From the IMG/VR virus record IMGVR_UViG_3300029171_000002, positions 1 to 64,000 of that record: a stretch of DNA of 64,000 nucleotides, one strand, 5' to 3'. The DNA is from a virus (Duplodnaviria; Caudoviricetes). The notes beneath the pieces were generated by a model. The model did no database searches. It was not told where the DNA came from and saw nothing but the letters and a program-made list of their open reading frames with translations. Every line of letters begins with the position of its first letter. Position 1 is the stretch's first letter. A program made the position numbers and the translations under genes. Positions 22,328 to 58,141 of this stretch are shown here, piece after piece.

Positions 22328-23131
22328 CTATTGCTCGGTTACTCCTATTTCTGTTGCAACTACGTTGTGTGAACCACAATCTCCACAAGTGAATCTTTGC
22401 CCTGGGCCGTGTCTGCCTTTTCGCAATTGCAGATTTTCTATTCTGTTATCCGATTTATTCCCGTTGATGTGATGCACAGTCTCCGACTTCAGTAGTGGTC
22501 TGCCAAGAGACTCTGCCATCACTAATCGATGCTCATAGACATTTCCATTTCCATCTTGCATTTCTGTGAAGAACGGATGATTCATGGAGATAGGAAGTAT
22601 CTTGTAACCACGGATAATGTACCCTGTGCCTGGTGCTGATCTTGGCTTCGGAGTATGCAAACCATGAGCTTGGAGGATTCTTGATATCAGATTCTCTCCA
22701 CACTGCATTTTTGAAGATATTCCCCTAATCGGCATTCCCCCACGATAGCAAACCAACACCTCTTCGATCTTGCTGTGCTCCAATATGAAATCATGCTTCT
22801 TCGGTTCGACTCCATGCCTTTTCAGCATCTTCCTGAAACCAGAATAAGAGATGGCGAAATGCCTAGCTGTTTCCTTAAGACTGTGTGGAAACAGATAGTA
22901 GTCAACCATCTTCTTTTCAGCCACAAAAGACAACTTCGGTATCGGACCATGTTTCTGCAAAGTAGTTGGCTGAAGTCCATTACGATACAGCACTCGATAA
23001 ACAGTGTGCCTTCGCCATGATTCATCAGCCTTAGCGATCTCACTCGCTGGCATCCCACCACGAAACAACTCCACTATTTTTGCTTCAGCTTCCACTGATA
23101 GAGACCTCGGTTTTCCTCTCATACCCTTCAA
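22328..23131 (-). CDS. HNH homing endonuclease with N-terminal HTH repeats
   Basis: YEHRLVMAESLGRPLLKSETVHHINGNKSDNRIENL; AT-rich. Confidence 0.85.
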   Translation of the reverse strand: MKGMRGKPRSLSVEAEAKIVELFRGGMPASEIAKADESWRRHTVYRVLYRNGLQPTTLQKHGPIPKLSFVAEKKMVDYYLFPHSLKETARHFAISYSGFRKMLKRHGVEPKKHDFILEHSKIEEVLVCYRGGMPIRGISSKMQCGENLISRILQAHGLHTPKPRSAPGTGYIIRGYKILPISMNHPFFTEMQDGNGNVYEHRLVMAESLGRPLLKSETVHHINGNKSDNRIENLQLRKGRHGPGQRFTCGDCGSHNVVATEIGVTEQ

Positions 23132-30074: not shown

Positions 30075-31865
30075 TTACAGAGTGGGAACGCTGGTGATAC
30101 GGAAGTTAAGGCGAGGGTTACTCACAACCAAGTTCCCCGCAAAGAAATACTGACCCGCAACATCGTCGGTATTCTGGGCTTCCTTAAATCCAGAGAAGCC
30201 GAACTGGTATCGCTCCAGCGTGCTCACGTACAGAGCAAAGTTCTCGCGCCGAGTATTCAGACCGTACATCTCGCCTGAAGGTGCGTACTGGTCGACAACG
30301 ACTGAAGCACTATTAAATTTGAAGCTGGAGAATCCTGCCTTAGCTACGTCAGAGCTCTCTTCGTGGAACCGCTGCATTGGCTGCAGTTTGCTCCAGAATT
30401 GATCCCAAACGTTCTGCCGTCCAGCAATCAAATCCACATGCTCGTTTCCGAACCATGCGCTTCCATACGCCTTCTGCACACCGGTCAAACTGAAACCGGT
30501 AGAGAATGAAGCCACGTAACCGTTAATGCCGCTTGAAACGGTTCCGTTTGCTACGCCCAAATCGCTTCTGGTGATCCCACCATAGCTTGCGTAGTTTGAT
30601 CCATGATCGACAGCGGCCTGCAAGCCGTCGAGTTGAAGCGTTCCAGAGTTGGTGCCCTGTCCGTCAAGATACATGTCGGTTGCGAGCAATTTGCCCATCT
30701 TGCCGGCAGCGTTGTTCAGCTTGGCAGAGACATGGGAGAAAGCTGCTTCCGGGCCACGGTTCAAGACAGAGTCGGGTCCATAGACTGTCACGTTTACGTA
30801 GTAGAACTTGATCGCAAACTGCAACGCCGAATCAGTTGTGACTCGGGTTGTGTCGAAAGTTCCACCAGGGGCATACGCGCCGCCATTTAATTCTGCCCAT
30901 TGTATGGGGACCAGGATACGATTACCGCCCTCGAAGCGAGCGACGTTATTCGTCCGAGCCCTGACAAAAACAGCAGAACTTTTGTAGCTAGAATCCTACG
31001 GCTTGAGGCGCACCGTAGCTTGGGCCATCACTCATCAGGACTGATTCTGATCGTTCGGGGTTGGTCTCTGCACGTGCGGCTTCAAGTTCGAGCAGGCGTT
31101 GTCGCCAACGCTCTTGCTTGTTGAGGATACGGGGAGGGGTAGCAATACCTGTGGCTCTGCGCTCACGCCAATGCTTTGAAGTCGTGTTGAACAACCTCAA
31201 GAGTTCTGCTTCCTCGTGACGAAACGTCATGTACCGTTTCGCAGTCGTAGCATTTGAACTCGCTTCAGCGCCTTGACTCAGCCACGATAGTTTGTGGCCT
31301 TTCAAGATAGTGCCGCCAAATTCCTTTTTGATAAAAGGCAAGGCGGAAACATCGATGCCGATCAAAAGCCCCAGAGCTGGTTCGCAAAAGCCATCAGGGA
31401 ATGATTCGACACAGAACACACCACAAGCTTCCAGGACACCGGCGAGATAAGCATCTTTGGCCCGAGACTTCCGAACCATCGACCGCTCTCGGGCTTCGAG
31501 CTTCAACTCTTGGACTTTTATACCATTGAGGTGATAGATGACAAGATTTTGCTCTCGCTCAAGAGTCCCGCCAAAAAGACCCTGGATTCGCTTCAAAGGT
31601 TTTGCTTGATTAAACTTTACGGTAAGAGTGTCTCCGGCAAAACTGGGGGATGCAGCATCCAGAAAGCCAGTGACATAACCGAGTATCGTTTCCCTATCCA
31701 TATCTGCCGCTTCGTCAGGGTAGCCGTCTTAGACATGTGTCCAAGTGCCGGGCGTTCCCTGGATTACCGAACGTTTATACACCGCCTACAGTTAACGGTG
31801 TCTACCAACACTGGAACGATGAAATCGCGGGTTTTTCCGTTGATATCCGTCCAGGTTAGAGCCAT
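30075..31865 (-). CDS. Major capsid protein, spliced: exon 1 31865-31795, exon 2 30987-30075 (327 aa)
   Basis: AGGAG RBS, ATG 31865; joined frame MALTWTDINGKTRDFIVPVLVDT-V-YKSSAVFVRARTNN...; 71+913=984 nt; HK97-type P22-like coat pattern; follows scaffold. Confidence 0.85.
30988..31701 (-). CDS. Intron-encoded double-motif LAGLIDADG protein, apparently catalytically degenerate
   Basis: YVTGFLDAAS and YLAGVLEACG motifs; starts in the P6a loop. Confidence 0.75.
   Translation of the reverse strand: MDRETILGYVTGFLDAASPSFAGDTLTVKFNQAKPLKRIQGLFGGTLEREQNLVIYHLNGIKVQELKLEARERSMVRKSRAKDAYLAGVLEACGVFCVESFPDGFCEPALGLLIGIDVSALPFIKKEFGGTILKGHKLSWLSQGAEASSNATTAKRYMTFRHEEAELLRLFNTTSKHWRERRATGIATPPRILNKQERWRQRLLELEAARAETNPERSESVLMSDGPSYGAPQAVGF
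30988..31794 (-). mobile_element. Group I self-splicing intron, 807 nt
   Basis: P1 CACCGU/GCGGUG with U.G at the splice site; P10 UGUAG/CUACA; P3 CGUUCGG/CCGAACG; P4 CAGGG/CCCUG; P6 ACG/CGU; P6a GCGGC/GCCGC; P7 G(A)GACCA/UGGCCC; P8 AUCAG/CUGAU; P9 CUACGG/CCGUAG; terminal G. Confidence 0.9.
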
Positions 31866-32030
31866 TGGTAAAGTCTCCTAAGAAAATGTCCAGCAAGTTC
31901 CGATGTTGGCGGTTTCGCCTTCCTCGTGCTGGCCATCTCCTTCCCTGCGTGAGCAGGGGTCCGGAGGCTGGCAAGGTTGAAGGGTCCGGTCGATAACTCG
32001 GGCCAGTGCGGGGTTACATTACAGCGTCAA

Positions 32031-32873
32031 CTACTTACCCTCGCGGGTTGCAGTTGCGGCTGCGGCGACAGCTTCATCAAGGCTGGCAAATTGATGCTGG
32101 CTGTTACCTGGATCCTGATTAAATCTGCGGTTCATGGCGCCACTGTCTAAGCTGACACCGGGCGATGGCGGAACCGAAGCAATCGTCTTGTACTTCTCTT
32201 CGGCCTTCCGATCAGCCTCTTCCTGAATACGTTTGATTTCTGTGTCTCTGATCTGCTGCCCAAATTTGGCGTTGTAAGCGTCTTCAAGTTTGGAAATCCC
32301 TTTCTCTGCGGCATATCCCCAGAGCTCTTGAATTTCAGTCTTTGTCAAAGCTTTGCCAAAATCTTTTGCCGATCGCTCCCGGATATCCAGAGTGTCGAGC
32401 AGGTTCTCATGGGTGAAGTTGATGTAACTCTGACCACGCTCGTTGATCAGCTTCTCTACTTGGTCGACGCTTACGGAACCCTTAATCGCGGTCTGCACCG
32501 TGCCCAGCATTTCCTTGACGCCTTTGATCTCATTCATCACGGCCTGGTTCTCGCCGACCGTCAGATCGCCGCCCGCAGCCCTCGACTGAAGGTCAGCAAG
32601 CTGTGACTCCAGCTGGGTCTTGACCGTGGTTAGTTGCTCGTTTTGCTCGGTCAGAGTTCGCACAGAGGAGAGCTTGGCAACGTTGTCGTCATACCACTTC
32701 TTCTGCGCAACCTCAGTTTCCTTAACCTTGTTCATGTTGCGGCTGTAGTCTTCCTGAGCCATGAACCCCTTAAGGATGTCTGGGTTGGATTCAAAAGCTT
32801 CCCGTGCAACCTTTCTGTAATTCTCGTCCGGCATTTTTGCCAGAGCGTCTTCAACTGATTTAGGCAGAGCCAT
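32031..32873 (-). CDS. Capsid scaffolding protein
   Basis: Helical/coiled-coil, charged, directly upstream of the capsid gene. Confidence 0.7.
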   Translation of the reverse strand: MALPKSVEDALAKMPDENYRKVAREAFESNPDILKGFMAQEDYSRNMNKVKETEVAQKKWYDDNVAKLSSVRTLTEQNEQLTTVKTQLESQLADLQSRAAGGDLTVGENQAVMNEIKGVKEMLGTVQTAIKGSVSVDQVEKLINERGQSYINFTHENLLDTLDIRERSAKDFGKALTKTEIQELWGYAAEKGISKLEDAYNAKFGQQIRDTEIKRIQEEADRKAEEKYKTIASVPPSPGVSLDSGAMNRRFNQDPGNSQHQFASLDEAVAAAATATREGK

Positions 32874-33585: not shown

Positions 33586-33660
33586 TGGTTGCGGGTCCTG
33601 GATTCGAACCAGGGATCTCTAGGTTATGAGCCTAGCGGAGTTCCTCTTTCCTAACCCGCC
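33586..33660 (-). tRNA. tRNA-Met(CAT), initiator-like, CCA encoded
   Basis: GGCGGGT...CTAGG-CTCATAA-CCTAG...CCTGG-TTCGAAT-CCAGG-ACCCGCA-A-CCA. Confidence 0.9.
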
Positions 33661-41407: not shown

Positions 41408-41739
41408 CGGATCTCGCCTCTTTGGAATCGGCTTCGCTTATAAGTCGTTAGTACTATCGGCTTTCGCTTCTTCTTCGGTCGTCGCCGATGCACTTTGCCG
41501 TGGCAAGGTTTGCACAGAACCTGCAGGTCTTCGAGTGCTTCGTTAAACAGTCTGACGTAAGTCAGGTGATGACATTCAAGCCGCGTTCGTCTCGGGCATT
41601 TCTGACATTTCCCTCCAACCGATTCAATCTTGACACGCCGCTTCGCATGCCATTGCGGTGACTTCAGATAGGCTTGGTACGCGCTGCGTTTAGCGGCTAT
41701 AAATGACGCCCTGCTTCTCCCGCGGGACCATCTTGCCAT
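41404..41739 (-). CDS. Small HNH endonuclease, possibly packaging-associated
   Basis: YLKSPQW...CQKC...HHLTY...LQVLCKPCH. Confidence 0.8.
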   Translation of the reverse strand: MARWSRGRSRASFIAAKRSAYQAYLKSPQWHAKRRVKIESVGGKCQKCPRRTRLECHHLTYVRLFNEALEDLQVLCKPCHGKVHRRRPKKKRKPIVLTTYKRSRFQRGEIR

Positions 41740-55861: not shown

Positions 55862-55936
55862 GCCGAGATAACTCAGAGGTAGAGTGCTGGCCTGAAAAAC
55901 CAGTGGTCGCCAGTTCAATTCTGGCTCTCGGCACCA
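55862..55936 (+). tRNA. tRNA-Phe(GAA), CCA encoded
   Basis: GCCGAGA...ACTC/GAGT, CTGGC-CTGAAAA-ACCAG, GCCAG-TTCAATT-CTGGC, TCTCGGC-A-CCA. Confidence 0.9.
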
Positions 55937-57629: not shown

Positions 57630-58141
57630 CAAGGCCACACAAGAAATACAAACGGAGGGCAATCCTTACTCTTGAAGCCAGGCTTTGGAGAAATGTAGAA
57701 AAGTCTGATGATGGATGCTGGTTATGGACCAAGGCGGTTCGTCGTGATGGCTATGGTGCCATAGAGGAATACGGAACAAAATTCAATCACGCTGTCCACA
57801 GATTGTCTTGGATGTTGGCCAATGGACCAATTCCAGAAGGTCTTTATGTTTGCCATCACTGCGACACAAAACGTTGTGTTAGGCCAGACCACCTTTTTCT
57901 CGGGACAGCCAAAGATAATACCCAGGATTGTATCAAGAAGGGGCGCTTTCAGAACGTATCACCATACAGGAAAACAAAACTCACAGAAGATATAGTGAGA
58001 TCGATTCTAGAAATGTCCAATGGAGGGGCACGCCAGATAGAGATCTGCAAAAGTCTTAACCTGAGAGACGATCAAGTGTGTCGAATTGTTAATCGAAAAA
58101 GATGGAAACATGTAAAGGAGAATGTCAATGAATGCAGGTAA
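57626..58141 (+). CDS. HNH homing endonuclease
   Basis: GCWLWT...GYG...HRLSW...VCHHCD...CVRPDHLFLGT..DN. Confidence 0.85.
   Translation: MTRPHKKYKRRAILTLEARLWRNVEKSDDGCWLWTKAVRRDGYGAIEEYGTKFNHAVHRLSWMLANGPIPEGLYVCHHCDTKRCVRPDHLFLGTAKDNTQDCIKKGRFQNVSPYRKTKLTEDIVRSILEMSNGGARQIEICKSLNLRDDQVCRIVNRKRWKHVKENVNECR

Follow-up and report, generated by a model that had tools for sequence, protein, structure and literature searches.

A LAGLIDADG protein without catalytic acids, encoded through the core of a phage capsid-gene group I intron: a putative maturase derived from a homing endonuclease

Why would a phage intron keep an open reading frame (ORF) for a LAGLIDADG protein that has lost the residues with which such proteins cut DNA? 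The question arises in what we call the window, the whole 64,000-nucleotide (nt) stretch analysed here, which covers positions 1 to 64,000 of the 73,342-nt virus record IMGVR_UViG_3300029171_000002 (Caudoviricetes; CheckV completeness 82%; the sequencing runs that contain the record are labelled aquatic metagenome). On the minus strand of the window, the major capsid gene is interrupted by what we identify as a group I intron, and the ORF sits in its P6a loop and runs on through the 3' half of the ribozyme. Taken together, the intron, the fold of the protein, its missing acids, the derived state that it shares with a sister protein and the selection acting on it form a picture that we regard as highly probable. 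The explanation that we favour for this picture as a whole, a decayed endonuclease kept by selection as the maturase of its own intron, is put forward tentatively, with slightly less than half of our confidence behind it.

The interrupted capsid gene and its intron

The frame opened by the ATG at 31865 reads MALTWTDINGKTRDFIVPVLVDTV, and downstream of it an open frame between about 30995 and 30075 gives a PHROG 9953 match ('major head protein', E = 4.8e-35) that spans only profile positions 26-327 of 329, leaving the N-terminal part unmatched. Protein searches returned more than 400 capsid homologues of about 300-330 amino acids (aa). Intronless homologues (320-328 aa) have N-termini that begin MALTW, and they carry a D-x-V-Y-K-S-S segment uninterrupted over the junction; all twelve homologues whose N-termini we compared across it are continuous there. 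The capsid gene is therefore split inside codon 24, between GT and C, by the insert at 31794..30988.

To judge by its structure, the insert is a group I intron, with P1, P10, a P3-P9 core and a terminal G all in place (Table 1). Minus the ORF, the ribozyme amounts to 93 + 93 = 186 nt; neither a P2 helix nor P9.1/P9.2 hairpins were identified in the window intron. At the DNA level we compared six related introns, those of the window and of loci L001, L004, L005, L006 and L007, and judged covariation in P1, P3 and P6 by hand beside RNAalifold. P1 shows a double-sided change, ACACCGU/GCGGUGU in the window versus ACGUCGU/GCGACGU in L001 and L004, in which two pairs covary; it also pairs at site B, the second insertion site of the family, and a single-sequence fold of the intron recovers it too. 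P10 (UGUAG/CUACA) has 5 base pairs in the window and 4-6 in the other introns at the same position, site A. Between site-A and site-B introns, P3 differs by three compensatory pairs (GUUCGG/CCGAAC in the window versus GACUGG/CCAGUC at site B). P6 covaries as well, being ACG/CGU in the window, GCG/CGC in L004 and AUG/CAU in L006, and P6a, P8 and P9 are paired in all six introns despite differences in sequence. Given the six 3' halves alone, RNAalifold predicts P7, P8 and P9, with compensatory changes in 9 of 21 pairs.

P7 takes the family form G(A)GACY / RGYCC, followed by AA(A/C), with a bulged A. It presumably corresponds to CAGACUAAA / AGUCG of Tetrahymena, a comparison by which we take the G of GAC to be the guanosine-binding G and the next pair to correspond to A265-U310. 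In the window P7 reads G(A)GACC/GGCCC and contains an A.C mismatch, A31065 facing C31024, where four of the five relatives have A-U. Rfam RF00028 (Intron_gpI) found no match in the window, in 30500-32300 or in L001 (cmscan, gathering thresholds and E up to 10). We do not hold this against the intron, because an ORF insert of 620-900 nt lies inside P6a.

The capsid exons of the window phage and of the phage carrying L004 differ by 0.22 nonsynonymous (pN) and 0.85 synonymous (pS) changes per site, a sign of strong constraint. Splicing in vivo is very probable, given an essential capsid protein, the constraint on its exons and the presence of near-identical fragments in four other studies. We found no joint across the intron among the short contigs from four DNA runs. 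The fragments from the four other studies, contigs of 151-217 nt at low depth, match stretches of the intron and ORF at 96-100% identity (positions 31175-31353, 31292-31441, 31530-31680, 31706-31856 and 31788-32000); one of the four runs with such fragments is labelled wastewater, one is labelled soil and two have no habitat label. Their occurrence suggests that the window phage lineage is widespread.

A LAGLIDADG protein and its acid-less sister

Pfam, PHROGs and the PDB sequences yielded no match to the window protein itself; its homology emerged only by way of metagenomic relatives. An exhaustive phmmer search and two word-index searches gave about a dozen relatives (E = 7.9e-15 for the window protein against P0002, 1.6e-35 against P0004), and seven of the ten relatives that were aligned first match PF00961. 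The family profile matches I-MsoI (E = 2e-15), I-CreI (about 1e-6), the bI3 maturase (E = 2.7e-5) and also I-AniI. In an AlphaFold model built from a small alignment (predicted local distance difference test, pLDDT, 81.8; predicted template modelling score, pTM, 0.79), the LAGLIDADG domain topology is present twice, and the best Foldseek matches in the PDB are all LAGLIDADG proteins, namely I-MsoI, E-DreI and I-CreI variants, with the bI3 maturase at rank 8 and I-AniI at rank 12. Towards the C-terminus the model has a pair of long basic helices (residues 162-183 and 190-211), followed by a disordered tail (214-237) whose codons belong to the ribozyme core. Searches with the window protein revealed neither a helix-turn-helix nor any other known domain. 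Across the family, the basic C-terminal helix pair (residues 156-211, FRHEEAELLR...W...P...W..R) is the best-conserved segment of the protein; when the ESM Atlas was searched with these helices, the only matches were to further phage LAGLIDADG clusters and to generic helical hairpins.

The two LAGLIDADG motifs of the window protein are GFLDAAS (residues 12-18) and LAGVLEACG (residues 86-94). Twelve of the 14 family members (the window protein and 13 relatives) have E or D in the columns that A17 and C93 occupy. In those twelve, the first motif contains DGEG, DAEG or DGDG and the second EAEG, DGEG, DAEG or EGEG; the window protein has DAAS and EACG. The family profile aligns the acid column with the second D of I-CreI GFVDGDG, which we take to be D20. 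In the AlphaFold model, A17 and C93 terminate the LAGLIDADG helices H3-17 and H79-93, and it is at the helix end that the metal-binding acids of characterised LAGLIDADG enzymes sit (PMC3384342). The window protein is a LAGLIDADG derivative without either metal-binding acid, as the initial annotation had proposed, and most likely it no longer cuts DNA.

One relative of the window protein, P0004 (41% identity), is encoded in L004 and forms a clade with it at 100/99 support. The gene as called for P0004 begins too early: its true start is M27, the counterpart of the MDR... with which the window ORF opens. Both proteins lack about 75-85 residues that separate the two LAGLIDADG domains in the long relatives, where they align with the C-terminal helices of I-CreI and I-MsoI; because the outgroup has those helices, their absence from the compact pair is a deletion. 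The first motif is degenerate in both members of the pair (GFLRAS in L004), and the second acid is replaced by C in the window and by N in L004. Over three alignable segments of the beta-saddle, the net charge is -1 in the window protein and -2 in that of L004, compared with +4 to +11 in the others, while the C-terminal helices stay positively charged in both. It therefore seems that the window protein has probably also lost the usual mode of DNA binding.

Has the pair simply drifted since? Outside the RNA core, the window and L004 ORFs differ with pN 0.44 and pS 0.78, the latter saturated; because pS is saturated and pN is not, neutral decay is unlikely. By region, pN is 0.47 in the LAGLIDADG domains and 0.36 in the C-terminal helices, a helix pair with 54% identity between the two proteins. 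The two are also alike in their distance to the outgroup L001 (pN 0.478 for the window, 0.487 for L004). In neutral simulations that ignore indels, a frame of 200 codons survived without a stop in about 0.5% of runs when each branch received 0.33 substitutions per site, and in about 0.1% at 0.5 substitutions per site, which puts the chance survival of an open frame below 1% per lineage. All of the family-invariant residues are retained (P35, G41, G44, G45, G88, G94, G129, W178 and P189). Two short contigs of low depth from another study represent a variant about 96% identical in the ORF, in which four of the five listed differences, a small number, are synonymous third positions and the fifth changes C106 to G. 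This pattern of substitution indicates that the protein has been retained as a folded protein by purifying selection since it lost its nuclease residues. The expectation of the initial annotation that the ORF is not in neutral decay is borne out on two counts, the derived state shared with the sister and the gap between pN and pS.

A reading frame welded to the ribozyme, and what it may be kept for

The ORF and the ribozyme are physically merged. The AUG (31701) lies 4 nt past the 5' strand of P6a (31710..31706); the final 93 nt, exactly 31 codons, are P6a', P6', J6/7, P7, P3', P8, J8/7, P7' and P9; and the UAG at 30990..30988 is at once the stop of the ORF and the last three bases of the intron, supplying the terminal G. 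The initial annotation had already placed the start of the ORF in the P6a loop, P6 to P9 in its last ~31 codons and the terminal G in its stop. Hairpins after P9 are present in the four other introns compared and missing only in the two acid-less ones, and it is because these hairpins were lost that the ORF ends, in both the window and L004, on the UAG that terminates the intron.

This arrangement would couple translation to splicing. The weak Shine-Dalgarno region of the ORF falls in the 5' strands of P6 and P6a (31706..31715), and translation of the ORF is probably low. Ribosomes on the ORF would traverse, and thereby melt, P6a' to P9 and halt on the last codon of the intron, so that translation and splicing of one RNA molecule would be mutually exclusive. 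Ribosomes in the core have been shown to impair splicing in the case of I-TevI, and the overlap of ORF and core has been named 'core creep' (PMC3073962); with this precedent, the earlier suggestion that translation competes with folding of the core appears sound. The largest overlap in Table 1 of that paper is 81 nt (Synechococcus lividus LSU, LAGLIDADG ORF), and by analogy the 93-nt overlap in the window, which reaches up to the 3' splice site, can be regarded as extreme core creep. A separate observation concerns translation from exon 1. Followed into the intron, the exon 1 frame of L001, L004 and L006 is stopped four codons in by a UAG. The window differs by 1 nt, which takes this UAG out of the exon 1 frame; on unspliced RNA, ribosomes would therefore read through ten more codons, over the internal guide (P1 3' strand) and the P3 5' strand, as far as the UAA at 31766..31764 in J3/4.

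How might such a protein have come to be kept? We propose that the ORF descends from a two-domain LAGLIDADG homing endonuclease of the I-CreI/I-MsoI kind. The common ancestor of the window and L004 introns would have lost the 75-85 interdomain residues (mostly helices), both acids and the positive charge of the saddle, at least the first acid having gone before the two lineages split, and it would have retained the fold and the conserved basic C-terminal helix pair. The retained protein may then bind its own intron RNA and aid the folding and splicing of the small ribozyme. LAGLIDADG maturases are described from fungal mitochondria, and one is reported in Thermotoga neapolitana (PMC3984707, PMC3073962). 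A maturase that stabilises a small ribozyme would be the simplest account, one we advance with a confidence a little short of half, because the protein comes from the intron itself, in cis, its reading frame merges at the 3' end with the core, the segment conserved best is a basic helix pair adjoining that core, and both introns that encode such a protein have lost peripheral RNA. We lean somewhat against the fullest form of this proposal while considering it possible: a phage group I intron maturase that has switched completely from cutting DNA to the splicing of a 186-nt ribozyme, with translation through the core as a built-in switch between protein and splicing.

Several observations weigh against a maturase. 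The acid-less clade has two members, and the links of acid loss to the lost RNA hairpins and to the lost saddle charge rest on one evolutionary event. The residue at the second acid differs between them (C versus N), and the loss there may have been independent and later than the split. P0004 is not basic overall (isoelectric point 6.7, net charge -1), whereas RNA-binding proteins usually are. Similarly small group I ribozymes (about 200 nt), such as that of Azoarcus, are known to self-splice free of protein. The terminal branches of the clade, at 1.0-1.2 changes per site versus 0.1-0.8 elsewhere, are about 1.5 to 10 times longer than those of relatives, and constraint has therefore been relaxed. 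The P7 mismatch gives no help either. The initial annotation took it as the mark of a weakened ribozyme that a nuclease-dead protein assists; the mismatch is real, but it is not tied to the loss of the nuclease, since L005, whose ORF retains both acids, has the same mismatch and the acid-less L004 has a perfect P7. In L005 it arose independently, when a Ser codon changed synonymously from AGU to AGC; introns of this family seem to tolerate the mismatch. We have therefore discarded it as a sign of protein dependence. Across the six introns, a better correlate of acid loss would be the missing hairpins after P9.

The long branches also speak for an unlikely alternative, that the protein is functionless and its frame stays open for another reason, or that the loss is recent in both lineages. 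In one variant, translation of the 714-nt insert guards the long intron RNA against Rho-dependent termination or decay until exon 2 has been transcribed; in another, most of the divergence dates from the time when both proteins were active nucleases. The differing second-acid residues fit such a history, as does pN relative to the host capsid gene, which is about twice that of acid-keeping pairs, and homing endonuclease genes are expected to decay once they are fixed (PMC3984707). Translation alone would not, however, constrain amino acids, and here pN outside the RNA core is well below a saturated pS, every family-invariant residue is still present and AlphaFold still predicts a confident fold. 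The joint deletions, the degenerate first motif and the lost saddle charge place the loss before the split, and the equal distances of the two ORFs from L001 likewise speak against a functionless protein.

If purifying selection has outlived the nuclease residues, it could also be acting on a job other than splicing: that of a regulator, of a protein-binding adaptor comparable to WhiA, or of a factor in competition between co-infecting phages. WhiA is an acid-less LAGLIDADG fold that, with a C-terminal helical module, has turned regulator (PMC3384342), and the most conserved part of the family here is the basic C-terminal helix pair, which is seen in other phage LAGLIDADG clusters too. We nevertheless judge such a role improbable: the gene stays in the intron, at the same site in both lineages, with its end welded to the core, all of which fits a function in cis; the positive charge of the saddle is gone, arguing against the usual DNA binding; and the search for known domains was negative. 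Far less probable still is a protein that remains a nuclease or nickase by means of other residues (for example D15 and E91, at position 6 of each motif) and drives homing. D15 and E91 are retained, the modelled fold is intact, and insertion at three or more sites of capsid genes shows clearly that the intron family is mobile. Yet the acid at the helix end is essential in characterised enzymes (I-DmoI D20/D21 and E117, in the numbering of PMC3384342), WhiA, which is devoid of these acids, does not cut DNA (PMC3384342), acids at position 6 also occur in members that keep the catalytic acids and hence are not replacements, and the basic residues of the saddle have been lost.

The intron family and comparable systems

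Searches with the ORF protein led to five further loci with DNA (L001, L004, L005, L006 and L007), each with a related insert in a related capsid gene. Four inserts, those of the window, L001, L004 and L006, occupy site A (codon 24), and two, those of L005 and L007, occupy site B (codon F15), nine codons upstream. L002 and L003, further assemblies from the same study, carry the window sequence. A third insertion site is seen in L008:380-2111, after ...TFNQD at about codon 70; the capsid frame of L008 breaks again between ...AVDPKF and YVNVSLYG, where about 270 nt lack a long ORF, possibly a second, ORF-less intron. The capsid gene of this phage clade is thus a hot spot, in which a single family of group I introns with related LAGLIDADG ORFs occupies at least three insertion sites. 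A blastn search of the region against the phage collection and an exact-pattern scan of viral contigs for the conserved J3/4-P4 stretch gave no match. A metagenome scan with the family alignment found one locus only, L005, and a word-index protein search added at least four relatives, all of them long forms.

We looked for a free-standing endonuclease beside the capsid gene that could mobilise the intron in trans; none of the HNH ORFs lies there, and there is no GIY-YIG match in the record. The record contains two HNH_3 ORFs (PF13392, E = 2e-16 and 8e-12) and one HNH ORF (PF01844, E = 1.5e-5), at 57791-57922 (+), 22418-22537 (-) and 41482-41607 (-), which may be free-standing homing endonucleases. 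It also holds two tRNA genes, at 55862-55933 (+) and 33589-33660 (-) (Rfam RF00005, 68.8 and 54.8 bits). A 280-aa minus-strand gene of unassigned family, ending at 32031, precedes the capsid gene and, judged by position, is a putative scaffold gene.

Table 1. Positions in the window of the capsid exons, the intron, its paired elements and the ORF, in order of transcription
Feature	Position	Strand	Remarks
AGGAG ribosome-binding site of capsid gene	31879..31875	-	strong; upstream of ATG 31865
Exon 1, major capsid gene	31795..31865	-	ATG at 31865, 23 codons, then GT
5' strand of P1, ACACCGU	31801..31795	-	last 7 nt of exon 1; U.G pair at splice site
Group I intron	31794..30988	-	807 nt; 93-nt 5' half, ORF in P6a loop, 93-nt 3' half
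Internal guide, P10 strand UGUAG	31790..31786	-	pairs with exon 2 start CUACA
Internal guide, P1 strand GCGGUGU	31785..31779	-	pairs with exon 1 end ACACCGU
P3 5' strand GUUCGG	31772..31767	-	
J3/4 UAAU	31766..31763	-	contains first in-frame stop of exon 1 frame
P4 CAGGG/CCCUG	31761..31757 with 31720..31716	-	
P5	31754..31751 with 31725..31722	-	
P5a hairpin	31745..31728	-	
P6 5' strand ACG	31715..31713	-	
P6a 5' strand GCGGC	31710..31706	-	
ORF	30988..31701	-	237 aa, ATG start; compact two-domain LAGLIDADG; A17 and C93 at catalytic positions
Ala17 codon GCA	31651..31653	-	first metal-binding acid position
Cys93 codon TGT	31423..31425	-	second metal-binding acid position
P6a'	31080..31076	-	
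P6'	31074..31072	-	
J6/7	31071..31069	-	
P7 5' strand G(A)GACC	31068..31063	-	
P3' CCGAAC	31058..31053	-	
P8	31051..31047 with 31038..31034	-	
J8/7	31033..31027	-	
P7 3' strand GGCCC	31026..31022	-	
P9	31018..31013 with 31001..30996	-	
3' tail GAUUCUAG	30988..30995	-	UAG stop 30990..30988; terminal (omega) G = G30988
3' strand of P10, CUACA	from 30987	-	first 5 nt of exon 2; pairs with UGUAG
Exon 2, major capsid gene	30075..30987	-	C, 303 codons and stop

Among known proteins, the bI3 maturase of yeast mitochondrial cob intron 3 (PDB 2ab5) resembles the window protein in being a group I intron LAGLIDADG protein with the two-domain fold, and it acts as a splicing cofactor and not as a nuclease. 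bI3 is translated in frame with the upstream exon. The window protein, by contrast, has an ORF of its own, within a late gene of a phage, and is smaller (237 aa), and its maturase role is putative. The bI3 intron, which is mitochondrial, also requires the Mrs1 protein (PMC2813881). I-AniI, from the Aspergillus nidulans cob intron (PDB 1p8k), is a monomeric two-domain group I intron LAGLIDADG protein that matches the window protein in fold and profile; it is bifunctional, a maturase that keeps its catalytic acids and cuts DNA (PMC2647301), whereas the window protein is without both acids. A bacterial precedent for maturase-like activity is the LAGLIDADG protein of the Thermotoga neapolitana 23S rRNA intron, a likeness drawn by description (cited in PMC3984707); that intron lies in the rRNA gene of a hyperthermophile and not in a protein-coding gene of a phage. 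WhiA/DUF199 has the two-domain LAGLIDADG fold without the acids, an altered saddle charge and an added C-terminal helical module (PMC3384342), but shows no sequence match to the window protein.

Two phage introns are comparable in their architecture. In the td intron of T4, which encodes I-TevI, the P6a loop likewise houses the ORF, whose 3' end extends into the core and whose ribosome-binding site is sequestered (PMC3073962); I-TevI is, however, an active GIY-YIG enzyme with a 20-nt overlap, compared with 93 nt, up to the 3' splice site, in the window. Mycobacteriophage LittleE has a group I intron in its major capsid gene with an I-CreI-like LAGLIDADG ORF, and its splicing has been shown (PMC3706429); this ORF is on the opposite strand and its product, of 177 aa, is presumably an active homing endonuclease, and the phage group is unrelated to that of the window.

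Group I introns in phage capsid genes were thus already known from LittleE and Tuc2009 (PMC3706429), as were LAGLIDADG ORFs in phage introns (PMC11878797), and degenerate homing endonuclease genes, LAGLIDADG maturases and ORF-core overlaps are likewise known kinds. In the reviews consulted, phage introns splice by themselves, with no more help than that of host chaperones such as StpA (PMC3984707). In the literature searched, we found no phage intron-encoded maturase and no prior description of this capsid intron/ORF family. If the protein has no splicing role, neither the phage intron nor its degenerate homing endonuclease gene would be out of the ordinary. The intron family itself forms a natural series, leading from long ORFs with intact acids and hairpins after P9 to compact, acid-less forms without these hairpins. 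Should the maturase reading prove true, the series would capture an endonuclease-to-maturase transition outside organelles, and the window intron would provide a small and tractable pair of RNA (186 nt) and protein (237 aa) in which to study it.

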